64,000 bases of DNA from Candidatus Woesearchaeota archaeon (GCA_964514585.1 CAZETU010000002.1:129486-193485); one strand, 5' to 3'; positions 20,933 to 34,804 are shown, counted from the first letter of the stretch. Numbers and translations: made by a program. Notes: a model not told the origin generated them from the letters alone.

Positions 20933-23524
20933 TTAACTAAAAATATCTTCTGCTCTTAGTTCTTTGTTTTGATTTTCTTTGGGCTTTTCTTCGACAATCT
21001 CAATGTCACTTTTAGGTTCTTTGAATGGCTTGACTTCTGCATTTTCAATTTCTTCCATTTTATTTTTTATTTCTTCCATTTCGCCTATTGGTTCTATTTT
21101 TGATTCGTGTTGTTCTTGAGGTTCTTCTTGTGTTGGTTCTTTGGCTTGAGCTTCTTCTTCTAACCCCTCCATTAAGTTTATTTCTGGTTTTTGAATTTTT
21201 GCAATATTTTCAGAGGTTATTTCTGGTTTTTCTTGAGCTTCTTCTTGGATTGGCTCGGGTTCTGGCTCATTAATGTTTTCACCATTTTCTAATTTTTGGA
21301 CTATCCGTGAAATTTCGTGTGCGGCGTCTGCGTTTACTGAGATTGAGTCTATTCCTTGTTTGATTAGAAATTCGACCATTTCTTTTTTGGAACCAGCTTG
21401 TCCGCAGATTGAGGTTTCGACGTTTTGTTTTTTACATTCTCTGATTACTCTTGAGATTTGTTTTAGGACTGCCCAGTTCATTTCGTCGTATACGTATTGG
21501 ACGTCTTCGTTTCCTCGATCTGTTGCTAGGGTATACTGTGTTAGGTCGTTTGTTCCAAATGAGATGAAGTCGATTCCTTCTTCGCAGATGTCTTTGATTA
21601 GGATTGATGCGGCTGGAGTTTCTATCATGACTCCGAATTTGACGTTGTCGATTTGCATTTCTTGGAAAATTGTTTTTGCTTGTTTTACTTCGTCTGTTGA
21701 AATTACTTGTGGGAACATGACTCCTAACTTGTGTCCTTTGTCGGCTAATTCTTTGACGGCTTGTAGTTCTGCTTTTAGAATTTTTGGATGTTTTAGTGAA
21801 AATCTTATTCCGTGGTTTCCAAGCATTGGGTTTTTTTCTGTTTCTTTTGGGGCGCCTTCAAGGTTTGCATATTCGTCGCTTCTGATATCTGAAGTTCTGA
21901 CCCAGATTGGTTTTCCGATAAAGGCGTCTGCAATTTCTCCTAATCCTTTTTTTAACATTTCTTTATAGTCCTCTAATTTCCCTTCTTGTTCATAGGCGAT
22001 AGGGTGTTTGCCTGAATTGGCTATTATTCCTTCTAATCTTACGAGTCCGATTCCGTCAGCTTTGGTCCCGGCTGTTCTTTTGGAGAATTGTGGGAGGTCT
22101 AGCATGACTTTGATTTTTGTTTTTGTTTCGACTACTGGTAAGATTTCGACTTTTTTGTTTTGGGTTCGTCCTGTGAATACTTTTCCGTTGTATCCGTCTA
22201 CTGTTATTTCATCTCCGTCTTTTAGGACTTCGAGTGCGTTTTGTGCTCCGACGATTGCTGGTATACCCATTTCTCTTGAGACTATTGCTGCGTGTGCTGT
22301 GACGCCGCCTTCGGAAGTTACTATTGCTGAGGCTTTTTGCATTGATACGACCATGTCTGGGTTTGTCATTGTTGTTACTAAAATATCTCCTTGCTTGATT
22401 TTTCCTAGGTCTTTCATTGAGTGGATAATTTTTACTATACCTGAAGCGATTCCTGGCGAGGCGGCCATGCCTTGTGTTATGATTTGTCCGTCTAGTTCTT
22501 CTCTTTCTTTGGTTTCTTCTTTTAGGGTTGTTATTGGTCTTGTTTGTAAAATGTAGATATCGTCGTTTTCAATTGCGAATTCTATGTCTTGAGGGGCTTC
22601 GTAATGTTCTTCGATTTTTATTGCTAATTCTGCTAGTTGTTTTATCTCATAAGTTTTTAGGGTTCTTTTAGTTGATATTTCTGGAGTTAGTTGTATTGTT
22701 TTTGTAAGCCCGCCGGCTGTTCTCACGACTGCTAATTTTTTGTCTGAGATTTTTTCTTCTGTTATTTCTAGGTTTTTTGTGACTACATATTGATCGGGTT
22801 TGATTTTTCCTGAGACGATTCCCTCACCTTGTCCGAAGACTGCTTCGATTAATATTTCCTCGGTGTTTTTTATTGGGTGTTTTGAAAATATTACTCCTGA
22901 TTTGTCTGAGTTGACCATTTTTTGAACGATTACTGCGATGCTTACGAGGTCGTCGAATCCTTTTTTCTTTCGATAGTAGAGGGATCTTGCTGTGAAGATT
23001 GAGGCGAAGCATTGTTTGACTTTTTGGATTAGTTCTGGGTTTCCTTTGATGTTTATGTAGGAGTCTTGTTGTCCGGCGAAACTTGCTTCTTTTGTGTCCT
23101 CTGCTGTTGCTGAACTTCTGACTGAGACAAAGACTGGTTCTCGGGAAGATTTTAGAATTGCTAGAGCGCCTGGTGAGTCTTGGAGTCCCGTGAGGTCTAT
23201 ATTGAAGTGGTCGTATGCTTCTATTATTTCTGATTGGAGTTTTGTGGGCATTTCTGCATTTATTATTATTTCTCTTATTTCTTCGGATCTCTCTGTTAAT
23301 TTTTCTGTTTCGTCAACATTGATTCTGTTTAAGAGTTCTCTGATTTGACCCTGAATTTTTGTTTCTTTTAGGAAATATAAGAATGCGTCGGTTGTGATTA
23401 CGAAGGCTTGGGGAACTGGGAATTTTGCTCTGAACATTTCGCCGAGGTTTGCGCCTTTGCCGCCTGCGATTCCAGTGTCTTCTTTAGATAAGTTTGAGAG
23501 CCATTTGATGTAGTTGTCACCCAT
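20933..23524 (-). CDS. ppsA: phosphoenolpyruvate synthase (pyruvate, water dikinase) with an ~100-aa acidic C-terminal tail
   Basis: GGKGANLGEM ATP-grasp start, phospho-His domain GGVTAHAAIVSREMGIPAIVG and the C-terminal PEP-utilizer TIM barrel (FISFGTNDLTQ). A TTTATATA box lies about 27 nt upstream of the ATG. Confidence 0.9.
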   Translation of the reverse strand: MGDNYIKWLSNLSKEDTGIAGGKGANLGEMFRAKFPVPQAFVITTDAFLYFLKETKIQGQIRELLNRINVDETEKLTERSEEIREIIINAEMPTKLQSEIIEAYDHFNIDLTGLQDSPGALAILKSSREPVFVSVRSSATAEDTKEASFAGQQDSYINIKGNPELIQKVKQCFASIFTARSLYYRKKKGFDDLVSIAVIVQKMVNSDKSGVIFSKHPIKNTEEILIEAVFGQGEGIVSGKIKPDQYVVTKNLEITEEKISDKKLAVVRTAGGLTKTIQLTPEISTKRTLKTYEIKQLAELAIKIEEHYEAPQDIEFAIENDDIYILQTRPITTLKEETKEREELDGQIITQGMAASPGIASGIVKIIHSMKDLGKIKQGDILVTTMTNPDMVVSMQKASAIVTSEGGVTAHAAIVSREMGIPAIVGAQNALEVLKDGDEITVDGYNGKVFTGRTQNKKVEILPVVETKTKIKVMLDLPQFSKRTAGTKADGIGLVRLEGIIANSGKHPIAYEQEGKLEDYKEMLKKGLGEIADAFIGKPIWVRTSDIRSDEYANLEGAPKETEKNPMLGNHGIRFSLKHPKILKAELQAVKELADKGHKLGVMFPQVISTDEVKQAKTIFQEMQIDNVKFGVMIETPAASILIKDICEEGIDFISFGTNDLTQYTLATDRGNEDVQYVYDEMNWAVLKQISRVIRECKKQNVETSICGQAGSKKEMVEFLIKQGIDSISVNADAAHEISRIVQKLENGENINEPEPEPIQEEAQEKPEITSENIAKIQKPEINLMEGLEEEAQAKEPTQEEPQEQHESKIEPIGEMEEIKNKMEEIENAEVKPFKEPKSDIEIVEEKPKENQNKELRAEDIFS

Positions 23525-23570
23525 GTGTATTCTTAGGTCAAGGATTATATAAATGTTTTTGGGGAGATTC

Positions 23571-23685
23571 GTATGTTATGCAATATATATGTTGTGATAT
23601 AGTATATGCGAGTATATAGGTTCTTTGAAATAAAAAATGTATGTTAAGTATATAGTGTAATATAGTATATTGGAGTATATAGGTT
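23571..23685 (+). repeat. two imperfect ~50 bp direct repeats ending in ATATAGTATAT-NNN-GAGTATATAGGTT (orphan promoter-like modules)
   Basis: 23597-23622 atatagtatatgcgagtatataggtt versus 23660-23685 atatagtatattggagtatataggtt. The 13-mer GAGTATATAGGTT recurs at 56890-56902 within the TATA region of the gene starting at 56908. Confidence 0.8.
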
Positions 23686-23830
23686 TGGGCAGAAAAAAAG
23701 GACGGCTGCCTGACGGGGCGACATAGCTACTTTTGATGTCGCTTCCGGTAATGAACTTGATGTCTGTTGCGGTTGCGGTTGATGTTAGTGATGCGATGAC
23801 GATGGCTAGAATGATTGTAAGGTGTTTCAT
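23576..23830 (-). CDS. small secreted protein, probably truncated or fused at the block's left junction (84 aa as read)
   Basis: GAGGAG, then 6 nt, then ATG. N-terminal signal peptide MKHLTIILAIVIASLTSTATA. After about residue 45 the frame runs through a T7 tract into the AT-rich backbone repeats and simply translates them (PIYSNILYYTIY / PIYSHILYHNIY). Confidence 0.35.
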   Translation of the reverse strand: MKHLTIILAIVIASLTSTATATDIKFITGSDIKSSYVAPSGSRPFFLPKPIYSNILYYTIYLTYIFYFKEPIYSHILYHNIYIA

Positions 23831-23863
23831 GGTTTTCTCCTCTTCGAGTTTCGGACTTTTCGT

Positions 23864-23947
23864 TTACCAGGCAAACATACATATGATTGCCCAGATGGTT
23901 ATTACGGTAATAATTGCTATCCTGCAAGTTTCCTTCTTGTGATTCAT
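23864..23947 (-). CDS. micro-ORF, 27-aa single-TM peptide (MNHKKETCRIAIITVITIWAIICMFAW)
   Basis: Not in the track (<60 aa). AGAGGG, then 4 nt, then ATG. Hydrophobic core. Stop TAA at 23864-23866. Confidence 0.35.
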   Translation of the reverse strand: MNHKKETCRIAIITVITIWAIICMFAW

Positions 23948-24002
23948 TTTGCCCTCTTGCAAATTTTTTTGTGGGGTTGATAACGGCACATTACGACTTA
24001 CC

Positions 24003-24054
24003 ATTATATGGTATTAATGATAAATTGAAACATGTCGTTATGTGGGCTTGTCAA
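24003..24054 (-). promoter_or_regulatory. bacterial sigma70-like elements (exact TATAAT at 24008-24003, exact TTGACA at 24054-24049, spacing non-canonical)
   Basis: Both hexamers read on the minus strand between the 24063-24101 hairpin and the micro-ORF at 23947. They are 40 nt apart, so they cannot be one promoter pair. Confidence 0.3.
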
Positions 24055-24062
24055 TAAGGTAA

Positions 24063-24101
24063 GGCCCGCGAGCGGTGTTAGTGATGATTCGCTCGCGGGC
24101 C
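24063..24101 (-). terminator. GC-rich stem-loop just downstream of the 117-aa gene
   Basis: GGCCCGCGAGCG (24063-24074) pairs perfectly with CGCTCGCGGGCC (24090-24101). 12 bp stem, 15 nt loop. On the minus strand it is followed by TTACCTTATT. Confidence 0.5.
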
Positions 24102-24119
24102 TGATGTTGTGGGGGTGGT

Positions 24120-24473
24120 TTAGACTGTGACTGGTTTGCGACGGCGAGACTGGGTCGGTTCTCTGAGGACCGTTATCTTAACGCCACGTTCCTTCTGGAC
24201 GCTTCTGATTTGCCCGAGGGTTTTGCCGGCTCGGAAGTATGGGCCGTATATCTGGAGCAACTCTGTTGTAGCCGATACGGGTGGTTCATGTTTGGCTTCT
24301 GAGTTGTGATCTGTGGCCTGGACGACGACTGAGCAGTCTTCCCATGCTCTGAAAATGGGCATGTGCTCGACCTCCGGGTGGGTGGCTACTCGTTTTTTCA
24401 GGCATTCCAAATCTGTACTCACAATGTGTATGTTCCCGCTTCTTGCTACGAATATTTCTTTGATCGTTTCCAA
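24120..24473 (-). CDS. hypothetical protein (117 aa), TTG start
   Basis: AGGAG, then 8 nt, then TTG. Protein-like composition, unlike the overlapping 71-aa frame starting at 24501. Confidence 0.55.
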   Translation of the reverse strand: METIKEIFVARSGNIHIVSTDLECLKKRVATHPEVEHMPIFRAWEDCSVVVQATDHNSEAKHEPPVSATTELLQIYGPYFRAGKTLGQIRSVQKERGVKITVLREPTQSRRRKPVTV

Positions 24474-24479
24474 TTTTAT

Positions 24480-25436
24480 GCTCCTGACAATCCGTTAACA
24501 TTTCTCCTCCTCAACGTTTCATCTCAACGCAACACTTTTCTCAGAAACCTCCTTTCTGGCTATATTGCCGTTAGCGCTTGTGGGCCTTTCCACCTTTTAT
24601 TTCTTAAGTCTCTTACCCACCAGCTTGCCTTCCTATTTTTCTTTTTGGGTCGCCACCTTCTTCTTGTTCCTATTCTTTCCAGTGGCAACAACAACCCATG
24701 CTCCGACTCCTTACCTTTCATCACTCCATTCCTCCGATGTACTTCCTTTTCTTCTTTGAATCTTTTGAAAGCCCATGAGCGTGATATGAGTAGCCTCATG
24801 GGCTCATAGTGTTCTGGAGCTACTCTTGTCCTTCCTTTGCTATGCTACGCTGCCCGTGTTGCTCGTAAGGAAGCTGCCCTTCTTCGACAAGGTTCTTTCC
24901 TTTCCACCTCCCCTTTTCTGGTAATTTTTGGGGCAGTGTTATTTCTTCTCCTTGCCTTCAGAACTTCAATGAGTGGCGAGTTGCATGTTTTGCATCTGGT
25001 TGTTCTCGCCCTGTGTTCTCTTGTCCCGATGGGGCAATTTCCCTTTTCGTTCGAGCATTCTTTCAGCATAACTAGCGTCCTTTCGCATTCCGTTTCCATT
25101 GCGAGTTTTTTACGCTTTCTCTAGTGCAATCTAGCACTCTGTAGTGATACTCTCCTTTCTGTGCTCATTAATATGGCCGTTCACCGATTGGCCTTTTTTG
25201 GTTTTTTCTTCTTCGGATTCTTTCCGCTCCTAGCTCTTATTTCCGCTTTTGTCAGTGGTCTCTTCTTACACTTTCCTGACACTAGAGCTCCCCTTCAAAT
25301 CCGTTTTCCGTTCTAGTTCTCACTCTTAGTACAATCTAACACCCTTACAATTGACCTCCTTTCGTTATCTATGTTCTTTCTTGTTTTCACGTCCCCTTTT
25401 TGTTTACCTCCTTTCCGGGGTTGATGTTGATATGAA
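24480..25436 (-). other. ~0.95 kb purine-rich (gene strand) segment without a convincing ORF; carries four GAAAGGAG(G/A)-type motifs and a repeated TGTTA..GATTGT motif
   Basis: The plus strand is C+T-rich. ACCTCCTTTC occurs at 24547-24556, 25354-25363 and 25406-25415, and CTCTCCTTTC at about 25150-25159. See findings. Confidence 0.6.
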
Positions 25437-25512
25437 TCGGGGCGGAAGGATTCGAACCTTCGACCTCCAGCTTCTGCTAAGCTGACGCGCTACCAAACTG
25501 CGCTACGCCCCG
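25437..25512 (-). tRNA. tRNA-like gene with a 9-nt anticodon loop (isotype undetermined)
   Basis: Hand fold: CGGGGCG TA GCGC AGTTTGGTA GCGC G TCAGC [TTAGCAGAA] GCTGG AGGTC GAAGG TTCGAAT CCTTC CGCCCCG A. Every arm is canonical except the loop. Confidence 0.7.
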
Positions 25513-25568
25513 GGCTGCTGCGTTATGGTATGTTATTTTATTTGCAGCAGGTGATGCAGATGTTAGTG

Positions 25569-26027
25569 TTATTTTCTTGCTTCCCTTATCGTTAACTCGG
25601 TCATCTTGTATGTTTTGATCGCAATCAGTTTAGCTAAAGAAAGCGATCCGATGAGACCGAGAATGAAGATGTGTAAGGTGATATCTTTTGTGCTCTTGCT
25701 CTTGATTATACTTGGAATCTGGAGCAGCTCTTCTCCCATTCTTTGGTATATTGATGGGATGGACTCGGTACATCCTTGTATGGTAGCCATTAGTCCGTTT
25801 CCTAATCCGTTTATCCCGTTGATGGGGAATAGGATTAGGCTTAATAGTCCGACGAAGCAGAGCGTTCCGATGATTCCTTTTGGAAGCACTGATGCGATTT
25901 TCCACGAGATTATTATGTGAACAATCGCTGTTGCGACGAAGAATGCTTCCTGATTGATTTGTGAGAGTACAATCAGGCTCATGAGTGTTACCGCTGCCAA
26001 AACTCTCTTTATGTTCTCATTAGACAT
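25569..26027 (-). CDS. integral membrane protein (152 aa, about 4 TM)
   Basis: GAAAGGAAGAGG immediately before the ATG. Four long hydrophobic segments. Confidence 0.65.
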   Translation of the reverse strand: MSNENIKRVLAAVTLMSLIVLSQINQEAFFVATAIVHIIISWKIASVLPKGIIGTLCFVGLLSLILFPINGINGLGNGLMATIQGCTESIPSIYQRMGEELLQIPSIIKSKSTKDITLHIFILGLIGSLSLAKLIAIKTYKMTELTIREARK

Positions 26028-26110
26028 CCTCTTCCTTTCAAAATGGGGAAAAGGCGTCCGTGCCTGATTCTCAATCCGTTCCTATAACAACAACGAGAGG
26101 CAAAGAGAAA

Positions 26111-26512
26111 CTATTTCTTGCGCGCAAGGAAGTCCTGGGTGAGGGTCTGGATTTCCTCAGTAGACTTTCCTTGCTCGACGAGAGTCTTGATTAGGGAGGA
26201 TTTTGTTTTGACAATTTTCTCCCTGTGAGCCTGCTCGTTTCTTTCTTTCAAGGCCATTGTTTCTTGTGTGGCCTCGATGTGAGCCTGCTCGTTTCTTTCT
26301 GAGACGGTTCTGTTGAACCGCTCATTGGCTCTGTCGACCATTTCTTGTCCGCCGACAGCTACTTGTGCACCGGCGGTTTCGAGAGCAAGAACCTTGATGC
26401 CGTTTTTGTTGACTGTCAATCCAGAGAATTTGGTGCCTCCGGTTTGACCTGCGCAGCCAGTGAGGGCGGTGATTGCTACGAGTGCTACTGCGATGAGGAT
26501 TTGTCTTTTCAT
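26111..26512 (-). CDS. lipoprotein (133 aa) with a duplicated ERNEQAH segment
   Basis: Start moved to MKRQILIAVALVAITALTGCAG, a signal peptide with lipobox L-T-G-C. The longer track ORF (to 26572) adds an implausible leader. Confidence 0.65.
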   Translation of the reverse strand: MKRQILIAVALVAITALTGCAGQTGGTKFSGLTVNKNGIKVLALETAGAQVAVGGQEMVDRANERFNRTVSERNEQAHIEATQETMALKERNEQAHREKIVKTKSSLIKTLVEQGKSTEEIQTLTQDFLARKK

Positions 26513-26523
26513 CTTGTGAACCC

Positions 26524-26592
26524 TTAAGAATTGTTTCTTAGGTAGATGGTGATTAGCGTGAGGCCAATCCACAACAAAATGTCGTTTCCCAT
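26524..26592 (-). CDS. micro-ORF, 22-aa TM peptide (MGNDILLWIGLTLITIYLRNNS)
   Basis: Not in the track. GAAGGAGAA directly before the ATG, so the spacing is very short. Hydrophobic. Confidence 0.3.
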   Translation of the reverse strand: MGNDILLWIGLTLITIYLRNNS

Positions 26593-26665
26593 TTCTCCTT
26601 CTTTCCTTTGGGTTTCGTTTGTTCCCTTGGGTGCGCCGTAGTAAAAAGCATCACCTTTGAGATAA

Positions 26666-26749
26666 TGATAATAGAAGGAATCGAACCTCCATCTCCCCAC
26701 AGATCTGAATATGAAACGTGGGTGGCCCTACCAATTGGGCGATACTATC
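26666..26749 (-). tRNA. tRNA-like gene (84 nt) with a 19-nt anticodon loop / extended anticodon arm (isotype undetermined)
   Basis: Hand fold: GATAGTA TC GCCC AATTGGTA GGGC C ACCCA [CGTTTCATATTCAGATCTG] TGGGG AGAT GGAGG TTCGATT CCTTC TATTATC A. Confidence 0.6.
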
Positions 26750-26802
26750 TGCATACTTCTTCGTCATTTGGGTTATCTGAACGATGTTGGTTCAGAACGA
26801 TT

Positions 26803-27000
26803 CTAGCTGTTTCTCAACGAGAATGTTGCAGCAGCTAGGGTAATTCCTGCGATGAAACCAGGAACAAGAGCTTTTCTGATTAGTTCAAATCCCTGGAATA
26901 TATCTTGACCTACCGCTTTGCCTAGGTTGCAAAATGCAATCGCGCCAAAGAGTATTGCGATTGCGAACAAACTATATGTTACTTTTTGTTGCGTTCTCAT
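26803..27000 (-). CDS. small membrane protein (65 aa, 2 TM)
   Basis: GAGGAGGG, then 5 nt, then ATG at 27000 (MRTQQKVTYSLFAIAILFGAIAF...). The 131-aa track ORF's N-terminal extension looks non-coding. Confidence 0.55.
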   Translation of the reverse strand: MRTQQKVTYSLFAIAILFGAIAFCNLGKAVGQDIFQGFELIRKALVPGFIAGITLAAATFSLRNS

Positions 27001-27029
27001 TATGTCCCTCCTCGCGTTAAGGTTACTGG

Positions 27030-27224
27030 TTAATTTGTTGTTTTGCGAATCAGGATTCTTCTGATGACTAGGAGCGTTATTACTACTCCTACTCCAAGTA
27101 AGCTCCATCCTTCTTGTTGCATGAAGAGCTTTCTTGTGGCTTCTATTAGGAATATGGAAGCCGCTACTGTGGTTACTTTTGCCAAAACCTCCATCCACTC
27201 TTTTCTGTTTTGTCGTGCGGTCAT
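27030..27224 (-). CDS. small membrane protein (64 aa)
   Basis: GGGGAGAA, then 6 nt, then ATG at 27224 (MTARQNRKEW...). Two hydrophobic segments. Confidence 0.5.
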   Translation of the reverse strand: MTARQNRKEWMEVLAKVTTVAASIFLIEATRKLFMQQEGWSLLGVGVVITLLVIRRILIRKTTN

Positions 27225-27263
27225 CGGCGTTCTCCCCATTTAGTGATGGTTGGTGTTAACAAT

Positions 27264-27316
27264 AAACGTGGAGCCAGCCAGAGCAATGCTCTGTTCCAGA
27301 TGCTGGCTCCACGTTT
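27264..27316 (-). terminator. 15-bp perfect stem-loop followed by TTTATTGTT on the gene strand
   Basis: AAACGTGGAGCCAGC (27264-27278) pairs with GCTGGCTCCACGTTT (27302-27316). The loop contains its own 6-bp hairpin CAGAGC/GCTCTG. A second hairpin lies at 27325-27360. Confidence 0.5.
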
Positions 27317-27428
27317 GGAAGTATCAGATGCTTACCTTTGGTGGTATGAGGTAGCATCTGCGTTGATTGACTGGAGTTAATTCGCTAGTTGTAAATAGTG
27401 TTCAGCCCCGAGCCGTCGCTGTGATGGG

Positions 27429-27650
27429 TTATTCGTTGTTCGGGTCGGTGATTGTGATGGTAGGGGTGTCGTTGATCGTGGTGATTGGCAAGCTCTTTAT
27501 CCCTTCGCAGAGAAGAATAATGGCAATCCCGATGAGAACGAAATTTATCCCACAGGCGATTGCGAAGTTTTTTTCCTTGCCAATGATCATAACTATGCCC
27601 ATGGTTATTATTGTGAATGCGATGATGATTATGATTAGTGTCCAGGTCAT
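27429..27650 (-). CDS. small membrane protein (73 aa, 2 TM)
   Basis: GAGGAAGG, then 4 nt, then ATG at 27650 (MTWTLIIIIIAFTIITMGIVMII...). The 198-aa track ORF upstream part is rejected. Confidence 0.6.
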   Translation of the reverse strand: MTWTLIIIIIAFTIITMGIVMIIGKEKNFAIACGINFVLIGIAIILLCEGIKSLPITTINDTPTITITDPNNE

Positions 27651-27921
27651 AATACCTTCCTCTAATAGAGTGGTGGATTTGGTGAAAACGATAAAACACA
27701 GAACCGGTTTACTAAGTGGCGTGACTGCTTTCGTCAAAGTTGCCGGTGGCTTTGCGCTTGTTGTTGGAGGTGCGAACTGGGCCGTGATGCGGTCGTGTAA
27801 GTGTCGACCTGACCCAGTTCGCGAATGGCCTATCCCTTTGGAAGCGAACTTAGGGAGGATCCTTCTTTGCCCTAACTGTAAGCTAAGGGCCCAGGATTTT
27901 TTCGGCCACCATCGTAATGAA

Positions 27922-28203
27922 TCAGTTGTGGAGCTGAGTGACTGCGGCTTCAATCTTTTCCGGATCGAATTCACACCCCAGCATCTCCTGTCGGATTTTC
28001 TGGGGGTCAAGGCCGCACACTCCATTTATGGCCACCGCTATTTCTGCAAGTGTTGCGTTGCAGCCATTCTCTGAATGGAGTGTTTTGATGGCTACTTTTG
28101 TGGGAAAGGTTGTCATTAGGGTTTGCGCGATTTCCCTTGTTCCTTTCCCTTTCATCTCTTGCGCCATTCGTTGTGCTGCGTTATGCTTTGTTACTATATT
28201 CAT
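27922..28203 (-). CDS. hypothetical protein (93 aa)
   Basis: AAGGGAG, then 5 nt, then ATG at 28203 (MNIVTKHNAAQRM...). The track start at 28269 would overlap the tRNA-like gene. Confidence 0.55.
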   Translation of the reverse strand: MNIVTKHNAAQRMAQEMKGKGTREIAQTLMTTFPTKVAIKTLHSENGCNATLAEIAVAINGVCGLDPQKIRQEMLGCEFDPEKIEAAVTQLHN

Positions 28204-28263
28204 AACGACTCCCTTCTTGTAGGTTTTTTTCTGTGCTAAGATTTTTGTTCCATTTGTGAATAA

Positions 28264-28338
28264 GGCCAACGGAGGGAATCGAACCCTCGACTTCTGCTAT
28301 TGACTAAGCAGCACTCTACCAAACTGAGTTACGTTGAC
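28264..28338 (-). tRNA. tRNA-like gene with an 8-nt anticodon loop (isotype undetermined; GTC/TCA triplets in the loop)
   Basis: Hand fold: GTCAACG TA ACTC AGTTTGGTA GAGT G CTGCT [TAGTCAAT] AGCAG AAGTC GAGGG TTCGATT CCCTC CGTTGGC C. Confidence 0.7.
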
Positions 28339-28388
28339 CCTGCTGCTTACACCCCGTTATTGTCTTCTCTCCCGTGTTTTGGAGAGAT

Positions 28389-28634
28389 TTAAGCTACATG
28401 GAGTTCTGCCCTTGGTTCCATGATTTCTTGGGTGTATTCTATCACAAGGACTTCTTCGGTTTCGATTCTCTCGATTTCCTTGATGACTCTCGAAATTGTT
28501 CGTTCGAGCCCTTCTTTCAACTTTCCTCCTGACTCCCTTCTTATCTCTTGGATCATGATCTCCCGATTTCCTTTTGCTTCGGGTCCGTGTCCAAGTACCT
28601 CTATGGCGATTTTCTCGATTTGTTGATTTCTCAT
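28389..28634 (-). CDS. hypothetical protein (81 aa), E/K/I-rich
   Basis: AGGAGAAG, then 6 nt, then ATG. Confidence 0.55.
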   Translation of the reverse strand: MRNQQIEKIAIEVLGHGPEAKGNREIMIQEIRRESGGKLKEGLERTISRVIKEIERIETEEVLVIEYTQEIMEPRAELHVA

Positions 28635-28681
28635 TTGTTGCTTCTCCTATTGCTTGGTTCTGGTGCGAGCCGATTGTTGAA

Positions 28682-28755
28682 AACCAGCGGAAGGATTTGA
28701 ACCTTCAACCTTAGCTTTACGAAAGCCACGCTCTAACCAGTTGAGCTACGCTGAT
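28682..28755 (-). tRNA. tRNA-Thr (anticodon CGT), canonical
   Basis: ATCAGCG TA GCTC AACTGGTTA GAGC G TGGCT [TTCGTAA] AGCTA AGGTT GAAGG TTCAAAT CCTTC CGCTGGT T. 7-nt loop with T33 and A37. Confidence 0.85.
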
Positions 28756-28768
28756 TACTTGGCTGATT

Positions 28769-29419
28769 CTAGTGATGCAGTGAGGCCACCAACGCAGAGT
28801 TTTCCTGATTTGCTTTTGGCCTCTTCTCTTTCCCTTCCCTTGATTTTTCTATGAGATCGACCAAGGGTTGTATGTCTATGCTCATTTTTTCGGCCCAGCT
28901 TTTTGCGAGCATGATATCTATTCCATCAAAAAGGGGGTCTTGGGTTTTCATAGCCTCTTTGAGAAAATGGAGGACCATCAGCGGAGTTCCCATTGTCTTA
29001 ATCTCTTCTACCTCTTTTGAGATATCGAGACCAAGGCTATCCGCGTGTATTTCCGCTATTATCAGATCGGTTACCCATCCTCTTTCGCTCTTTAGTGCGA
29101 ATTTTCGAGCTTGTTTGAGAGAGGACGTCATTATATTTTGATGCCCAGTTTTTTCGATACCTCTTGTTTCTTCCGAGATATCGAGCCCAGTTTTTTTCGC
29201 AATGTTTTTGGCCAGTTCCAAATAGGTGACATAGATAATATCCCCCTTCGCTGCGAACTTTCGAGCTCCTTGGAGGTACTTGGTTATGGAAATTTGATTT
29301 TCTGTTGGGGCGGAGGTTTCGATGGGTTCTGTGCTTTTTTCCATCTGAGTGGGGGTGCAAATTCCTCCCAGAATCATGCCTATCAAAGCCAGTGTTACGA
29401 TAACTCTTTCGGTATTCAT
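28769..29419 (-). CDS. membrane-anchored or lipoprotein-like protein with three ~45-aa internal repeats (216 aa)
   Basis: N-terminal hydrophobic segment ending GGIC. Repeats: LQGARKFAAKG..GLDISEETRGIEKTG, LKQARKFALKS..GLDISKEVEEIKTMG and a third degenerate copy. Confidence 0.65.
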   Translation of the reverse strand: MNTERVIVTLALIGMILGGICTPTQMEKSTEPIETSAPTENQISITKYLQGARKFAAKGDIIYVTYLELAKNIAKKTGLDISEETRGIEKTGHQNIMTSSLKQARKFALKSERGWVTDLIIAEIHADSLGLDISKEVEEIKTMGTPLMVLHFLKEAMKTQDPLFDGIDIMLAKSWAEKMSIDIQPLVDLIEKSREGKEKRPKANQENSALVASLHH

Positions 29420-29451
29420 TCTCTTTTCCTTAACTAGGGGTTGGCTGTGAA

Positions 29452-29523
29452 AACCAGCGGAAGGATTCGAATCTTCAACCTTAGCTTTACGAAAGCTATG
29501 CTTTATTGTTGAGCCATGTTAGT
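29452..29523 (-). pseudogene. decayed copy of the tRNA-Thr(CGT) gene
   Basis: The 3' 55 nt are nearly identical to 28682-28736, including the TTCGTAA loop. The 5' acceptor and D arm are mutated (2-nt deletion; the acceptor no longer pairs). Confidence 0.6.
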
Positions 29524-29528
29524 ATAAT

Positions 29529-29627
29529 GTAGGACCCGGTTGCAGAGGAAGGAGAAATGCGCTTGGGGCAGCTGTCTCCATTGCGCCCTTGCAATGCTGC
29601 TCTCATGTGAGGAGAGCCGGGTCCTAC
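29529..29627 (-). ncRNA. candidate structured RNA (~99 nt) closed by an 11-bp helix
   Basis: GTAGGACCCGG (29529-29539) pairs with CCGGGTCCTAC (29617-29627). Internal hairpins are CTCTC/GAGAG, ATTGC/GCAAT and GCAGC/GCTGC. The strand is uncertain. Confidence 0.35.
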
Positions 29628-29640
29628 GTCTTGCGGAGAG

Positions 29641-29760
29641 CTAGATTGCGAAGGCTAGGATTGTGGCGAAACTCGCAAGGACTATTGTGACTACGAGTTT
29701 TAGGTTTTGTTCGCCTTCTTCTTCTGGTGGATTGAGACGTTCTACTTGATATCTTTCCAT
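29641..29760 (-). CDS. micro-ORF, 39-aa C-terminal-TM peptide (MERYQVERLNPPEEEGEQNLKLVVTIVLASFATILAFAI)
   Basis: Not in the track. ATG at 29760, TAG at 29641-29643. Weak RBS. The overlapping 62-aa track ORF is in another frame and is Arg/Ser/Thr-rich. Confidence 0.4.
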   Translation of the reverse strand: MERYQVERLNPPEEEGEQNLKLVVTIVLASFATILAFAI

Positions 29761-29869
29761 CTTGTTGTTCTTCTGTTTGGGTTGTTGACGGTGCATTGTG
29801 ACCTACCATCATATAGAATCAATGGTAGGCGGACGGCGAACCGTCTAGTTTGTGGGGTGTGTCGTTAGG

Positions 29870-31777
29870 TTAGTTGTTTTGCTCTTGGAGGAGTTGTTTG
29901 AGTTTTTCTGGATCAATTCTTGAAGGATCCACTCCTCTGAGCATCGTTTCGACGTCTTGGACTTTTTGCACGCGATCGACTTCTTCGTCGGTGATGGGTT
30001 TTGCTGCCTCGTAGCGTGCCTGCTCTGGGTGTTCTGCCCTTAGTTCCAGGGATATGATGTCGAAGGTTGAAACTGTGATTACCTTCTCTCTGGTTTCAGG
30101 GTATGACACCTTGACCATTTCGTCCGGTGCGATTGCAGCCACTTCTGGATTTCTGAGGGAATAGCTTGTTCTGAATATTTTGCTTATCCCTTCGAGACGG
30201 AATCCGTAGACGGCTTGGCCGTTCGTGAGACTTAGAAGATTGACGCTCACGATCCTTCTTGTTAGGTGGAGAATCTTGGCCGGCATAGCTCCAGGGATGT
30301 GTTGATCTTGGCCGGCGGTTGCGATTTTCTGGGCGTAGTTATCTAGGGCTTCTTCTACTGTCGTCCCTTTCGCCTTTAGGGTGTTTGTAATGTCTGCTAC
30401 CGAGTAGCCTATCATTTGGCTTTCTTGGCACATCGGCATGATGTAAGTCAGTCGTCCGTGTATATTGTACGGAACGAATAAAGCTGGGAGTACTCCCGGA
30501 GACTCTGGCCACAAGGCGTTGCCGGCTTGGTAGATTTCGTTTTCGGTTACACCTTGAGTACTGTAGAAGGTTGTTTCTCCTGTGCATGTGTCGCTGACGA
30601 TGAATCCGGTGAGCGCTAGATCGGACTCCATGCTTGTGAAGCCGCTGTACCATTTGGTTCGTTGGCTTTTGTGGTCGTAGACCATATACCAACCTTTGGT
30701 TGGCTGCTGGGATTTGTCGCTTTGCCATATGGTATACATCCAATCGGCGTTTCGGTACCAGCCCCATTTCTTGATGTTGGATTCGAGTACATCTATTGGC
30801 ATTGCCCGATCGACCCATTTCGGAAGCTCATCGATTGAGTGATGTTCATGTTCGCCGGTTACCAAGTTGAAGGCTACGATACCTGTGACTTGGCGGGCAC
30901 TCCAGCCGTGCTTTCTCTCTATCGTTGAGACGGTGTAGTAAGGGTTCCAGTTGTCGTCTACTTCGAAGGTCCAGTCTTCTAGTATAGTGAAGCGGTAACC
31001 TTCAGCGCGTAATTTGCGCTTTGCTTTATATCCCCAGCAGGCGCTATTGACGTACTTGATATGGATTTCCTCGCCCTGGGCATTATGCTGTACGGCCTGT
31101 CCTTCTTTGTAGGGATCTTCGGCCGAGACTCTGAGGAAGCCTGGAACTTGTGGGTCTCTACGCCATGTTTTCCATCCTTGGAATTCTACGGGGTAGATAT
31201 ACCAAAGATGTTGATTAACGAACTGGATGGTGGGTTCTTCCCCGATTTCGTATCTTGAGCCTGGCACGACATTGTTCGGCATCTTGAACTTGCTAAGGGC
31301 CGTTTGTGCCGCTTTGAATGCTCTTTCCGGGGGCACTTGCAGGATGTGAGCGTTGTCGGAGGGGGTAATGACTTCTGCGAGGTTGCCTTCTATGACTTTG
31401 ACTTCGCCGATTAGCCCCGCTTTTTGCTTGGCATTTGTGGCATCCCATGTTCCGGTGATTACAATCCATAATCCCCAGACGAGCAAGAGGATGATGCCGA
31501 GTGCACCACCTGCGCATCCCGCCGTATCTTCATGGTTTGTCAATGTCCCTATAAACCCGCCGATTATGCATCCGATGACAACTGACCAGAAGACGGGGGT
31601 AGGGCCATAGAAGCCGATTGCTCCGAAGTAATAGACGCAGGACAGTATCAACCCATAAATGGCTCCGCCCAAAACTCCTGCGATAATGGTTTTGCCGAAT
31701 TCCTTTTTCGAGCATACTGCTCCGAAGACGGCGGTTGTTGTGACTGTCGCGATACCGACGATCAATGCGATCCACAT
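29870..31777 (-). CDS. large orphan membrane protein (635 aa): N-terminal Gly-zipper-like TM bundle plus a ~520-aa extracytoplasmic domain
   Basis: GAGG, then 7 nt, then ATG. About 4 N-terminal TM helices rich in GxxxG (GGAIYG, GGFIGT, GCAGGALG). The remainder is W/Y-rich and soluble-looking. No family recognised. Confidence 0.8.
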   Translation of the reverse strand: MWIALIVGIATVTTTAVFGAVCSKKEFGKTIIAGVLGGAIYGLILSCVYYFGAIGFYGPTPVFWSVVIGCIIGGFIGTLTNHEDTAGCAGGALGIILLLVWGLWIVITGTWDATNAKQKAGLIGEVKVIEGNLAEVITPSDNAHILQVPPERAFKAAQTALSKFKMPNNVVPGSRYEIGEEPTIQFVNQHLWYIYPVEFQGWKTWRRDPQVPGFLRVSAEDPYKEGQAVQHNAQGEEIHIKYVNSACWGYKAKRKLRAEGYRFTILEDWTFEVDDNWNPYYTVSTIERKHGWSARQVTGIVAFNLVTGEHEHHSIDELPKWVDRAMPIDVLESNIKKWGWYRNADWMYTIWQSDKSQQPTKGWYMVYDHKSQRTKWYSGFTSMESDLALTGFIVSDTCTGETTFYSTQGVTENEIYQAGNALWPESPGVLPALFVPYNIHGRLTYIMPMCQESQMIGYSVADITNTLKAKGTTVEEALDNYAQKIATAGQDQHIPGAMPAKILHLTRRIVSVNLLSLTNGQAVYGFRLEGISKIFRTSYSLRNPEVAAIAPDEMVKVSYPETREKVITVSTFDIISLELRAEHPEQARYEAAKPITDEEVDRVQKVQDVETMLRGVDPSRIDPEKLKQLLQEQNN

Positions 31778-31856
31778 AATTCTACCTCTCTTTCTTGGAA
31801 GTGTGTGTTTTAGTTAGGACGATTGGTGTTATGTCGTTAGTTTGTGGGGGGTGGTG

Positions 31857-32039
31857 CTAAGGCGTCTTCTTTTCGGTGAGAACATGTCTTTTCATAATCC
31901 TCTTTGTTATTGTGTTTTGCCGTTTTGCCGATCCTTTATGCTTGGCTGTGATCAATGCACCAAAAATGCCTGCTGCCATTGCACTTTTTGGTATCAGCCC
32001 TTTTGCTTCTGAGCACCATACGGGGATTTTGTTGCTCAT
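31857..32039 (-). CDS. small basic protein (60 aa) with one hydrophobic segment
   Basis: AAAGGAGAA, then 5 nt, then ATG. Confidence 0.5.
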   Translation of the reverse strand: MSNKIPVWCSEAKGLIPKSAMAAGIFGALITAKHKGSAKRQNTITKRIMKRHVLTEKKTP

Positions 32040-32051
32040 GCCTGTTCTCCT

Positions 32052-32162
32052 TTACCAAAGAAGTATTGTGATGATGACTGGGAACGTGTGATAAGCTCTC
32101 CAGTTTTCTGCGACCTGTAGACAGAAAATCTGGATTACCCACTTATTGGGTTCTTTCTTCAT
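32052..32162 (-). CDS. micro-ORF, 36-aa peptide (MKKEPNKWVIQIFCLQVAENWRAYHTFPVIITILLW)
   Basis: Not in the track. GAGGAGAA, then 6 nt, then ATG at 32162. Its stop lies 12 nt before the next start. First gene of the array. Confidence 0.4.
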   Translation of the reverse strand: MKKEPNKWVIQIFCLQVAENWRAYHTFPVIITILLW

Positions 32163-32203
32163 GCTTGTTTCTCCTCATAGGCTATTCCGTGTTTTATCGT
32201 CGA

Positions 32204-32317
32204 CGAAATACCGTAAATCTGGGGTATTTCGATTGATTTCGCGTTTGCGAAGCTAAGAATTCTTCTTTGAAAAATACCTTATTTCACGAAATTTTTGGTT
32301 TTTCCGTGAGGTATTTT
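32204..32317. promoter_or_regulatory. two inverted-repeat pairs of a GAAATACC-like motif upstream of the block's first gene (operator or leader hairpins)
   Basis: CGAAATACC (32204-32212) with GGTATTTCG (32223-32231). AAAATACCT (32271-32279) with AGGTATTTT (32309-32317), plus inner CACG/CGTG. Confidence 0.4.
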
Positions 32318-32429
32318 CATGTTTTTCTTCCACGTTTTTGTTTGTATCTTGTATATCTAGAATTCAGGCATGAGGCTTGAATTGTTATGTAGTTATTTGT
32401 GGAAGAGGTAATGTATTTGTAAATATAAT

Positions 32430-34310
32430 TTATGATAGGCGGATTAGTTTTTTCCAGCCTTTTTCGTATTTAATCTCTTCAATTTTAATCAATCCTTTTT
32501 CTTCTAATTGTTTTTTTACGTTTGTTCCTTTTCTTGCAGAGAGTCCGATTTGTCGGTATACTTCCACTGTGCTCAAGGAGTGATTAGGTTTTTTTTGCAA
32601 GAATTCCATGAAGACTTGCTCGTCTGCATTCAGACTAATATTATTATGCGAATTTGACTTTTTAAGTGTTACTACTGGGGGGTTTCTAAAACTATCGATT
32701 GCGAGTTTTACATCTTCACTTTTGTAGTTTCCTTGTTCTTTACTTTCTTCTAAAATTCTTTCGATTTCTTGCAATTCTACTCCTGCTTCAATGTATCCTT
32801 TTACAAAATCGTGGAGAGTTTGTTGGACGTGATCTAAGGGAGTTTCTTTTGGTTTTTCTTGGATAGTTTCAACAGGTTTTGGTTTTTCAATTTGTTTATT
32901 GAATTCTGGGTCTACTTTGTTTGCGTATTCTCGGCTTGTCATCATTGCTTGCATTCGGAGTTTAATATCTTCGTCAGAAATATATATGTTTCTTGTTTCT
33001 GAATATGGGACTTCGATTAGGAATGGAGAGTTGTAACGTTCTGAGAGTTTTACGATTGCGCTTCCTACTTGGAGTTGTGAGAAGTAGTGTCGCTTTTCTC
33101 TTAGTTGCATGATGTCGCTTATGTCATTGATATCATCTGGTAATTGTTGTTGAAATGCGATGTGACATGCAGAGTTTCCTTTTACGGTGTCGGAAATTTT
33201 TGAGATATGTTGATCAAGACAGATTAGGCTTGTTCCGTATTCTCGCATTTCTCGGTAAATCATGTCGGTTACTGATTCGTTTGAAAAATTTGTTGGTTTT
33301 TTCAAGAAAATATTATGAGCTTCGTCAACTAAGATTGCGTGATCGAAACCGTGGCTTGCTTGATTTTGTCTTGCTTTTTTTAATTTGTATATGTATGTTA
33401 AAATAAATTCGCAGAAGAATTTTTTTTCTGTGTTTCCTAGGGCATTAAGTTCCATAACTACTTTTTTGTCTAGTAGTTCTTCGACGGTAAATGAGTTTTC
33501 TCCTTTGTAATTTACTGTTTTTCCGAATTCTCCGAATGTCATAACTGTTGCAATTCTTAGAGCTGATTCTAGCCAGCCAGCTTCTCGTCCTTGTCTGGCT
33601 TTATCCATTTTTTCTTCAAGCCGCCATTTGATGTGGTTCCATGTTGGGTAGTTTTCTGAGCCGTTATAGATGCCCCATTCTTTGAAGGATTCGTCTAGGG
33701 TTTCTAGGACGACTTTGTGGACACCGAATGATGCGGAGAAACTTTCTACTAATAGATCTGAAAGTACGTTGATCCATTCTTTTGGCGCGACGCCTTTTGG
33801 GGGTTGATTGATGTTTGTCTTGAATAAATTACTTACTTTTTCTTCGCCGATAGTGAATGCTAAAATATTGTTGTTCTTCGCTATTAGAGGTCTAAATGAT
33901 TTTTTCCAATCAAAGATTAGGAATGATTTGTTTTGGCTACTTAGAGCTTCGATTATTTTGAATGCGAATGTTGTTTTTCCTGATCCTGACATACCTGTGA
34001 CACAGACGTGCCGAGGCCAGTCTTGTTCTCTTAATTTGAATGGGAAAAGTTTTTTACCTGCGTAACTTATATCTGCTAAAGAATATTTTCCGTCGATTAG
34101 CTCTTCTCTTGGTGGTTCTAGTAAAACTTCGTTTCCTAATAGTTTGTTTAGATGTTTTTGGTAGAGTGCGTTAAGAATGTGAACTATTTCGTCTCTTTCT
34201 TCTCTTGAATCTGCTACGGTATACTGAAAATAAATCTCGTCTATTTTTTTCCCAAAGACAGGCCTAAGTTTGTTACATATTTCTTCTATTGTTAGTGGTC
34301 TTTGTATCAT
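32430..34310 (-). CDS. HerA/FtsK-like P-loop ATPase (DUF87-type) with a C-terminal winged-helix domain
   Basis: Walker A VTGMSGSGKTT and Walker B AILVDEAHN. C-terminal STVEVYRQIGLSARKGTNVKKQLEEKGLI resembles a wHTH. Confidence 0.7.
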   Translation of the reverse strand: MIQRPLTIEEICNKLRPVFGKKIDEIYFQYTVADSREERDEIVHILNALYQKHLNKLLGNEVLLEPPREELIDGKYSLADISYAGKKLFPFKLREQDWPRHVCVTGMSGSGKTTFAFKIIEALSSQNKSFLIFDWKKSFRPLIAKNNNILAFTIGEEKVSNLFKTNINQPPKGVAPKEWINVLSDLLVESFSASFGVHKVVLETLDESFKEWGIYNGSENYPTWNHIKWRLEEKMDKARQGREAGWLESALRIATVMTFGEFGKTVNYKGENSFTVEELLDKKVVMELNALGNTEKKFFCEFILTYIYKLKKARQNQASHGFDHAILVDEAHNIFLKKPTNFSNESVTDMIYREMREYGTSLICLDQHISKISDTVKGNSACHIAFQQQLPDDINDISDIMQLREKRHYFSQLQVGSAIVKLSERYNSPFLIEVPYSETRNIYISDEDIKLRMQAMMTSREYANKVDPEFNKQIEKPKPVETIQEKPKETPLDHVQQTLHDFVKGYIEAGVELQEIERILEESKEQGNYKSEDVKLAIDSFRNPPVVTLKKSNSHNNISLNADEQVFMEFLQKKPNHSLSTVEVYRQIGLSARKGTNVKKQLEEKGLIKIEEIKYEKGWKKLIRLS

Positions 34311-34326
34311 TTTGTTTAGATGTAAT

Positions 34327-34740
34327 TTAATCTGTTAGAATTTTTCCAAGCATATCTGCTCTGGACGTCTTTTCGCTTAGTTCTCTGGTTTGATCTCTTA
34401 GTTCTTTTTTCAAAAGTGCGATATCTCTCCAGCATCCTACTCTTTCGTTTAGTTGGAGTTCAGAAATATCTATTTGTTTTTTTCTTAATTCAGCTCTCTC
34501 TCTTGTAAATTCAGAATCATCTTCTCCTTTTGGTGCGTTTTCTAAAAGAAAATTGTGGATTTTTGTTTTCATTTTTTCACCTTCTTTTATGAAGTTTCCA
34601 CTGAGGTTGTTTCTTTCTTTTATTAGCATCCCAATTTCTTCTACGGTCTCTTTTATAGAGTCTACCTTTGCTTTTCCGACAGAATCGAAATTATTTGACG
34701 TATTCCAGGTATTCCCTTCAGGTATTTCGTTATCTTCCAT
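34327..34740 (-). CDS. coiled-coil protein (137 aa)
   Basis: ORF track. Heptad-rich and E/K/L-rich. Lies 16 nt upstream of the ATPase gene on the same strand. Confidence 0.5.
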   Translation of the reverse strand: MEDNEIPEGNTWNTSNNFDSVGKAKVDSIKETVEEIGMLIKERNNLSGNFIKEGEKMKTKIHNFLLENAPKGEDDSEFTRERAELRKKQIDISELQLNERVGCWRDIALLKKELRDQTRELSEKTSRADMLGKILTD

Positions 34741-34804
34741 GTTTATTTTAGTGGAATATCCTTTATAAACTTTTCTATTGTTGTTACTAAGTAGTTAGGA
34801 CACT

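Follow-up and report, generated by a model that had tools for sequence, protein, structure and literature searches.

Archaeal precursor tRNAs with introns at position 37/38 are among the closest described counterparts of the gene considered here. A canonical intron of this kind presents a 4-bp helix between two 3-nt bulges, a motif named bulge-helix-bulge (BHB), and the helix takes in the first two bases of the anticodon (PMC4090602). The gene in question, x84, is an 84-nt tRNA-like gene at 26666–26749 on the minus strand of a 64,000-nt stretch of DNA from a Candidatus Woesearchaeota archaeon (GCA_964514585.1, CAZETU010000002.1:129486-193485); this stretch is called the window throughout, and positions are counted from its first letter. 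Like precursors of the BHB and bulge-helix-loop (BHL) types, x84 has an archaeal host and carries its extra bases just 3' of a possible anticodon; excision of 10 nt would restore a 7-nt loop, and pairing is possible between positions 32–35 and the insert's 3' portion. Unlike them, it lacks the two 3-nt bulges, has a 2-nt 3' bulge and a weak helix at the level of chance, shows no inner helix and, at 10 nt, has no room for a second helix, and it lies in foreign DNA. The reading that we favour, with a probability of about one half, is that x84 is a horizontally acquired tRNA gene of Glu(UUC)-like loop ancestry that was disabled by an insertion of 10–12 nt into its anticodon loop.

A second point of reference is provided by the archaeal tRNA gene clusters that are associated with mobile elements and rich in tRNA pseudogenes, and for which the published definition demands 10 or more tRNA genes, with 2 or more per kb (Morgado and Vicente 2019, PMC6333295). 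The slot in which x84 lies (23525–32429) resembles such clusters in its co-oriented tRNA genes interleaved with hypothetical open reading frames (ORFs), its deviant GC content and its many non-canonical members, as well as in the link to horizontally transferred DNA and tRNA pseudogenes; bacterial tRNA arrays are also comparable. In contrast to the described clusters, the slot holds five genes at 1.2 per kb, below the defining size and density. It also differs in its DPANN host, a group for which none was reported, in defects that are centred on the anticodon loop, and in that no mobility genes were found. We place x84 among the atypical and pseudo-tRNA genes already known from acquired DNA; the notable part is the recurrent, loop-specific pattern in Woesearchaeota islands.

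Other described tRNAs share single traits with x84. Phage tRNAs escape anticodon nucleases through mutations in the anticodon loop (van den Berg et al. 2023, PMC10264068). They too are acquired genes whose anticodon loops are systematically unlike those of host tRNAs and whose body is kept, but they retain 7-nt loops and decode, whereas the loop of x84 is 17–19 nt long. No sign of a virus or of a tRNA-targeting defence was found beside x84. Frameshift-suppressor or quadruplet-decoding tRNAs carry an expanded, 8-nt loop on a normal body. This description fits two neighbours of x84 (28263–28339 and 25437–25512) and a gene of a related locus (L036:5405-5479) better than x84 itself, the loop of which is far longer; moreover, U33 is missing from its usual position in most of these odd loops. 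Finally, tRNA-like structures can act as processing elements, as in the tRNA punctuation of mitochondrial transcripts or in the haloarchaeal tRNA-like element that lies upstream of 5S rRNA and is cut by tRNase Z. x84 may be likened to these in that its tRNA shape lies between genes of one orientation and would need no more than the acceptor/T-arm half for such a role, and it differs from them in that a perfect D arm is also kept.

A cloverleaf with an expanded anticodon loop

Position i of x84 corresponds to window coordinate 26750-i, and the minus strand reads GAUAGUA UC GCCC AAUUGGUA GGGC C ACCCA CGUUUCAUAUUCAGAUCUG UGGGG AGAU GGAGG UUCGAUU CCUUC UAUUAUC A. The acceptor stem forms 7 of 7 pairs, one of them G-U; the D stem forms 4 of 4 and its loop has G18-G19; the T stem forms 5 of 5, again with one G-U pair, and closes a loop of the UUCRAUU type. 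Together with the anticodon stem, which in the Rfam register forms 4 of 5 pairs (A27/G43 is a mismatch), 20 of the 21 pairs of the tRNA model are present. As read from the sequence, so are all bases of the usual tertiary contacts (U8, A14, G18-G19, A21, U54-U55-C56, A58 and G53-C61). Rfam model RF00005 matches x84 over its full length with 44.4 bits, compared with a gathering score of 29 (E=3.4e-6 across the window), covariance model R1, derived from other tRNAs of related loci, scores it at 40.2 bits, and in RNAfold the cloverleaf is the minimum-energy structure (-26.3 kcal/mol, z=-2.1). The match to the tRNA fold is far above chance.

The anticodon loop is where x84 departs from this fold. 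The strands of the anticodon stem, ACCCA (26719–26723) and UGGGG (26695–26699), are separated by the 19 nt of CGUUUCAUAUUCAGAUCUG (26700–26718, minus strand), as seen in the sequence, in the Rfam alignment, which assigns an 18-nt insert to the loop, and in the model alignment, which gives a loop length of 19. In an alternative register, CCCAC/GUGGG, the loop is 17 nt. The canonical loop of 7 nt with U33 and a purine at 37 is thus absent. An earlier note on this DNA, made from the sequence alone, had described regular acceptor, D and T arms around 19 nt between ACCCA and UGGGG, and had pointed out that a C-G and a G-U pair can extend the anticodon stem to leave a 15-nt loop; both descriptions are correct.

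Gene finders treat the insert differently. ARAGORN with default settings misses x84, whereas ARAGORN -i, which allows introns, assigns it to tRNA-Glu(ttc) and places an intron of 10 nt at position 40. The register used is stem CCCAC/GUGGG, loop G-U-UUC-A, the 10-nt insert UAUUCAGAUC, and then U38. Excision of the 10 nt would leave GUUUCAU (Glu UUC); the stem register of this product is shifted, it has G32, and two bases separate its D stem from its anticodon stem. This is exactly the outcome that the earlier note had given as the only sensible mature loop, reached with a shifted register and a 10-nt intron. The tRNA-Glu(UUC) call is one of position only.

A splicing motif was sought as a 4-bp central helix with two flanking 3-nt bulges and splice sites after the second base of each bulge. 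Enumeration of all BHB geometries in x84 gave none that yields a tRNA, and a manual check of all three anticodon-stem registers agreed. The best-scoring candidate, a long helix of positions 32–40 with 49–60, was rejected, as it destroys the anticodon stem and its product is not a tRNA. One helix can form at the canonical place, namely G33·U47, U34-A46, U35·G45 and U36-A44, in which gene bases G33 to U36 (positions 32–35 in the ARAGORN register) pair with A44 to U47. It consists of two G-U and two A-U pairs, gains no stability (-23.1 kcal/mol against -23.4 for the open loop), and a similar helix is formed by a random 10-nt insert with P=0.19. In relaxed motifs (BHL, HBh') a single 3-nt bulge adjoins the 4-bp helix; the 3' bulge here is 2 nt instead of 3 nt, so that a strict two-nucleotide ruler would leave a loop of 6 or 8 nt and not 7. 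The putative 5' splice site lies in a 7-nt hairpin loop without an inner helix. The suspicion that the insert is too short for a BHB motif is supported: the enumeration gave no motif that yields a tRNA, and 10 nt leave no room for a second helix.

The loop also contains an imperfect tandem hexamer, UUCAUA/UUCAGA (26704–26715, minus strand; tRNA positions 35–46), seen by direct inspection. The earlier note had singled out two heptads in this loop, UUUCAUA and AUUCAGA, each with U before UCA, the complement of UGA. The heptads are present and share one A, and they are there because of the hexamer duplication; their reading as meaningful anticodon loops for UGA is not supported. Neither heptad has a flanking 5-bp closing stem. 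Of the traits of a selenocysteine tRNA (tRNA-Sec), namely a closed 7-nt UCA loop, a long variable arm, and extended acceptor and D stems, x84 shows none; its variable region is 4–5 nt, its acceptor stem 7 bp and its D stem 4 bp. Nor does its loop of 17–19 nt have the 8-nt N-U-NNNN-R-N form of a +1 frameshift suppressor. Reassignment of a stop codon in the island was rejected, as recoding of TGA, TAG or TAA fuses no island ORFs, and an antisense role of the loop was rejected as well, its complement matching the window 5 times against 4.8 expected.

Recurrent loop abnormality in a hypervariable island

The genomic context, which the earlier note lacked, changes the reading of x84: the gene lies in a foreign, hypervariable island, and two of its neighbours have anticodon loops of 8 and 9 nt. 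The island could be compared with 80 related metagenome loci that were recovered via an ATPase gene at the island edge (52–86% identity). A covariance model made from 15 class-I tRNAs of these loci was searched against 1.19 Mb, the hits were aligned, and the anticodon arms were read off. Counted as distinct sequences, 15 of 21 tRNA-like genes in the variable DNA, or cargo, have a non-canonical anticodon loop, compared with 1 of 17 outside it (Fisher p=4.9e-5). The sole exception outside the cargo is an Asn gene with C33, and most non-cargo tRNAs are tRNA-Val(UAC) genes beside a conserved nucleotidyltransferase gene. Since loop abnormality recurs among the cargo tRNA-like genes, x84 does not stand alone but marks the far end of a class.

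The abnormalities take several forms (L numbers denote related loci). Loops of 8 nt occur in L036/L037 (L036:5405-5479, loop GUUUUCAA) and in L067 (loop UAUACAAU); L027:12501-12581 has a loop of 12 nt, L076:4760-4841 one of 17 nt, and L007:10423-10490 one of 5 nt. U33 is replaced by A in L029/L079 and in the pair L027:13896-13986 and L066:20297-20371, by C in L058:18331-18405 (anticodon UCA, loop CCUCAAA), and by G in L010/L040/L041. C37 is found in L007:9296-9367 (anticodon CUA, loop CUCUACA) and in L071. No BHB motif was seen on inspection of the 17-nt loop of L076 and the 12-nt loop of L027. It can also be observed that two of these cargo tRNAs, L007:9296-9367 (CUA) and L058:18331-18405 (UCA), carry anticodons that read stop codons.

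Within the window itself, the loop is expanded in three of the four island tRNA-like genes that are well paired. Besides x84 these are Cys9 (25437–25512, minus strand; 21/21 pairs, Rfam 60.4 bits), with a 9-nt loop UUAGCAGAA, which ARAGORN calls Cys(GCA) and which has discriminator A and not the U73 expected of tRNA-Cys, and ThrAGU8 (28263–28339, minus strand; 21/21 pairs), with an 8-nt loop UAGUCAAU, called Thr(AGU) by ARAGORN. The fourth is a canonical tRNA-Thr(CGU) (28681–28756, minus strand; tRNA searches and alignment), with the 7-nt loop UUCGUAA and 21/21 pairs. A decayed duplicate of it (29452–29523, minus strand; Rfam 40.8 bits) keeps a normal 7-nt loop, has a degenerate 5' half and forms 17/21 pairs; in its 3' 58 nt it repeats the intact gene's 3' part with 91% identity (direct repeat 28678–28735/29448–29505). 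The two repeats bracket only a 216-aa ORF (28769–29419), and the arrangement looks like an att-type duplication. The five genes fall within 25437–29523 (4.1 kb), and they occupy short intergenic gaps, 12–153 nt from neighbouring ORFs.

Across the related loci most cargo tRNA-like genes retain 19–21 of 21 stem pairs, and several are decaying, with 17/21. A homologous pair, L027:13896-13986 and L066:20297-20371, has one aberrant loop in common. The L027 member is 91 nt long and forms 21/21 pairs, with a 26-nt D loop that results from a 17-nt insert relative to its partner; the L066 member has gained a T-stem mismatch and an extra base since the two diverged. Mini elements of 39–50 nt, which consist of an acceptor stem and a T arm only, also lie in the cargo of related loci, on the strand of the cargo genes (L048:5855-5898, L036:4682-4721, L066:13563-13612 and L036:6570-6608). 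Every cargo tRNA-like gene lies in a short intergenic gap and shares its strand with the ATPase gene and the cargo ORFs. The cargo of L010, L040 and L041 also includes additional tRNA-Val(UAC) genes of the host type.

The sequence of x84 is identical in seven independently assembled metagenome contigs, and it is thus no assembly error. The seven were drawn from 13 contigs that carry the 635-aa protein of the island, and their cargo is identical to that of the window except for one single-nucleotide polymorphism in one contig, at 30522, inside the 635-aa gene. The identical contigs come from JGI 3300005932, from ENA ERZ27315495 with its related ERZ samples, and from SRR5581655 and SRR7528417. 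Beyond these copies, searches with exact and gapped DNA patterns in IMG/VR and the JGI metagenome collection gave no homologue, blastn found nothing in 50,697 phage records beyond a 21-nt match to the T arm, and IMG/VR contained no match for the anticodon arm of either neighbouring odd tRNA. No other tRNA matches x84 at more than 62%. L076:4760-4841, with its 17-nt loop, was considered as a homologue and rejected, the identity of the bodies being at background level.

Alternative origins of the expanded loop

According to the reading that we favour, x84 would have entered the Woesearchaeota genome with foreign DNA and would no longer decode. It probably descends from a tRNA, nominally Glu(UUC), that had a G-U-UUC-A-N loop, into which 10–12 nt would have been inserted directly 3' of the anticodon, in part by duplication of the hexamer. 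The 7-nt loop would thereby have grown to 17–19 nt and the anticodon arm turned into a long irregular hairpin. The RNA would be unspliced and non-decoding, and x84 would be a relic, neutral or tolerated, rather than a selected RNA. In islands of this type loss of the anticodon loop would come first and general decay after. Support comes from the series of decay states, which runs through copies with 17/21 pairs, the L027/L066 pair and the acceptor-plus-T-arm remnants, and in which the decayed Thr copy (29452–29523) and the L027/L066 pair may represent later stages. L036:5405-5479, a cargo tRNA of the G32-U33-UUC type that was disrupted by a different insertion, also supports it. So do the intact body around an abnormal loop, the lack of a BHB motif that yields a tRNA, the foreign and variable island with its orphan ORFs, the frequency of loop defects in the window and across loci, and the tRNA pseudogenes known from archaeal clusters (PMC6333295). 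Several points weigh on the other side. x84, Cys9, ThrAGU8, L036, L058, L076 and both L027 genes (12501–12581 and 13896–13986) keep 20–21 of 21 pairs, and the loop alone is abnormal. Neutral decay should strike the stems as often as the loop, so this pattern points either to selection on the body or to a mutational process specific to the loop; the anticodon loop is only about 10% of the gene, and a loop-first pattern is hard to obtain from neutral mutation. One compensatory T-stem change, U50-A64 to C50-G64, separates the L027 and L066 copies. Because all copies of x84 are identical, neither constraint nor decay is measurable for it. In addition, DPANN splicing endonucleases are reported to have an extra loop (L3) that is associated with more disrupted tRNA genes (PMC5829648), which makes an unusual intron conceivable in x84.

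If the preserved body reflects selection, x84 would be a non-decoding tRNA-like RNA that serves as a processing signal or a decoy, an alternative that we consider doubtful although it ranks first among the rivals. The island would keep the acceptor/T-arm 'top half' that is recognised by RNase P, tRNase Z and the CCA-adding enzyme. Such elements would cut and stabilise co-oriented island transcripts in the manner of tRNA punctuation, or else they would serve as decoys for tRNA-targeting nucleases or as variants that resist them, and the anticodon loop would be free to vary or be deliberately altered. RNase P and tRNase Z need the acceptor/T-arm half, as in the mini elements, which are well formed in related cargo. 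The loop-specific abnormality with preserved stems in many cargo tRNA-like genes and the compensatory T-stem change point in the same direction, although several of these genes are visibly decaying (17/21 pairs), and x84 has no homologue elsewhere, so that selection on it cannot be demonstrated. The position of the cargo tRNA-like genes, co-oriented with the ATPase and cargo ORFs across short gaps, would also suit punctuation, but co-orientation is expected anyway where nearly all genes of a region are on one strand. Escape from anticodon nucleases by altered loops is documented for phage tRNAs (PMC10264068), but those variants retain 7-nt loops; and an antisense target of the x84 loop does not occur above chance in the window. 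A wider claim, that flexible islands of Woesearchaeota hold an undescribed class of tRNA-shaped RNAs with maintained acceptor, D and T arms and a deliberately non-decoding anticodon loop (5, 8, 9, 12 or 17–19 nt, or without U33), which act as RNase P/tRNase Z punctuation or nuclease decoys and of which x84 is the most extreme, is speculative and to our mind unlikely. It is improbable that x84 is instead a functional tRNA-Glu(UUC) gene from which a relaxed DPANN endonuclease cuts a 10-nt mini-intron, UAUUCAGAUC, at 37/38 as a degenerate BHL substrate, leaving a tRNA of 74 nt that has GUUUCAU as its loop. This product is the very one that ARAGORN -i calls, the insert is at the canonical intron position in an archaeal host, and bases 32–35, the first two of the anticodon included, can pair with its 3' part as a canonical BHB requires (PMC4090602). 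Some archaeal endonucleases do cleave BHL and relaxed motifs (PMC3241643, PMC4033280), and those of DPANN archaea carry the L3 loop associated with disrupted tRNA genes (PMC5829648). Yet the helix, made of two G-U pairs and two A-U pairs, brings no gain in free energy, and about 19% of random inserts match it; the 2-nt 3' bulge would set the ruler's cut one base off register; the 5' site is in a 7-nt hairpin loop without an inner helix; and the product has G32 and two bases between its D and anticodon stems. An AU-rich acceptor stem and a foreign island speak against a housekeeping tRNA of the host, the 17-nt loop of L076 and the 12-nt loop of L027 also lack a BHB motif, and the adjacent loops of 8 and 9 nt cannot be introns.

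A mutational process specific to the loop, which would explain why loops are struck first, is offered by site-specific recombination. The extra bases of x84 would then be a footprint, for example a target duplication, at the crossover site, left as a scar in an island that would have been assembled as elements with tRNA genes as their targets integrated and were excised time and again. We regard this as a long shot. The imperfect 6-nt tandem duplication in the insert, the 58-nt, 91%-identical att-like direct repeat of the tRNA-Thr(CGU) 3' part and the extra tRNA-Val(UAC) copies in the cargo of L010, L040 and L041 agree with it, but no integrase, transposase or recombinase was found in the window island or among ten cargo proteins sampled from other loci, collapse of the duplication still leaves 11 nt and not 7, and the two halves of x84 pair perfectly with each other, unlike those of a hybrid of two tRNAs. 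Very improbable, and largely refuted, is a recoding tRNA that would suppress UGA through a U-UCA heptad or decode shifted or multi-base codons. Two U-UCA motifs in the loop, suppressor-type anticodons in the cargo of relatives (CUA in L007:9296-9367, UCA in L058:18331-18405) and the 8- and 9-nt loops of adjoining genes would be in keeping with it. Neither heptad is closed by a stem, however, TGA, TAG or TAA reassignment merges no island ORFs, tRNA-Sec features are absent, and several odd cargo loops lack U33. A loop of 15–19 nt on an elongated arm cannot set an anticodon in normal geometry.

As it stands, x84 is an annotation trap, since a default gene finder skips it and an intron-aware one gives it a 10-nt intron that its structure does not support. 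Many Woesearchaeota share a conserved slot in which acquired tRNA genes, still cloverleaf-shaped, have abnormal anticodon loops far more often than host tRNAs. This affects the tRNA inventories of DPANN archaea, which are often reported as incomplete, and it provides a natural series in which the silencing or reuse of foreign tRNA genes can be studied. If the RNAs are indeed expressed and processed, they would point to a non-decoding role of tRNA-shaped RNAs in archaeal flexible islands.

The host genome and other features of the slot

The host is a Woesearchaeota (DPANN) archaeon. This assignment follows from the neighbouring genes, among which are one for ribosomal protein L35Ae, which is limited to archaea and eukaryotes, and one for a Woesearchaeota-like phosphoenolpyruvate (PEP) synthase. 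The PEP synthase gene (20933–23524, minus strand), a conserved host gene with homologues 70–79% identical in metagenome-assembled genomes of Candidatus Woesearchaeota, forms the downstream edge of the slot. The upstream edge is the gene of a 626-aa ATPase of the HerA/FtsK type (32430–34310, minus strand; DUF87 and Zot, with weak matches to CedD, TraC and HerA), which borders a variable slot in many Woesearchaeota. Between them lies the 8.9-kb cargo slot (23525–32429), recognised by composition, synteny and ORFs without homologues or families. On its minus strand lie all of its genes, namely the five tRNA-like ones and orphan ORFs for small membrane proteins or lipoproteins, and its GC content is 0.45–0.50 at 24–32 kb against about 0.38 (0.36–0.41 in the flanks and over most of the window).

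Synteny with relatives delimits the slot. In L014 a methyltransferase gene, found at 34805–35884 in the window, lies directly beside PEP synthase, and the whole of 23525–34804 (cargo, ATPase and a 137-aa gene) is absent. In L010–L012 and the window the order is methyltransferase, 137-aa gene, ATPase, 3–9 kb of mutually unrelated DNA, and PEP synthase. In L007 the PEP synthase gene is 78% identical in DNA and the cargo is replaced by unrelated content, which has only the 635-aa membrane protein in common with the window island, at 55% identity. Since the content of relatives in this place is unrelated, 23525–32429 is a variable cargo slot, and the island is foreign and hypervariable.

The 635-aa multi-pass membrane protein (29870–31777, minus strand; homologue searches) has its homologues mostly among chromosomal genes of Candidate Phyla Radiation (CPR) bacteria (Komeilibacteria, Paceibacterota), about 40% identical and without tRNA arrays, which suggests a transfer between domains, from one group of ultra-small symbionts to another. 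The nearest neighbours of x84 are known from gene calls. A 65-aa membrane ORF (26803–27000, minus strand; called on the identical contigs) ends 53 nt upstream of x84, and a putative lipoprotein of 133 aa (MKRQILIAVALVAITALTGC..., 26111–26512, minus strand), for which no homologue was found among 5.8 billion proteins, starts 153 nt downstream. Integrase, transposase, recombinase, capsid and viral hallmark genes were sought in the window island and none was found; ten cargo proteins sampled from other loci likewise included no integrase, transposase or recombinase. A virus or an integrative element is unsupported as an explanation of the island, as there is no hallmark gene and the ATPase has only weak matches of HerA, CedD or terminase type.

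Some further features of the region are worth recording. In the island at 27264–27316, upstream of the 65-aa ORF and x84, a spacer of 23 nt separates the arms of a perfect 15-nt inverted repeat, AAACGTGGAGCCAGC/GCTGGCTCCACGTTT, which could be a hairpin or a terminator-like element. At 23577–23685, in an 84-aa ORF just upstream of PEP synthase, a 46-nt sequence is directly repeated, with two copies that are 80% identical and lie 63 nt apart; an ORF related to this 84-aa ORF is kept at the equivalent place in L007. Over the whole window the GC skew is mostly +0.2 to +0.58, positive even over minus-strand genes, with T exceeding A on the plus strand; it dips to -0.06 at 24–26 kb, inside the island. 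Proteins with a PEP-CTERM sorting motif are encoded in the cargo of related loci (L036:3137-3964 and L007:8028-8903), and one at L024:7109-8320 lies beside a homologue of the 635-aa island protein, an indication that cell-surface proteins account for much of the coding content of the variable DNA.

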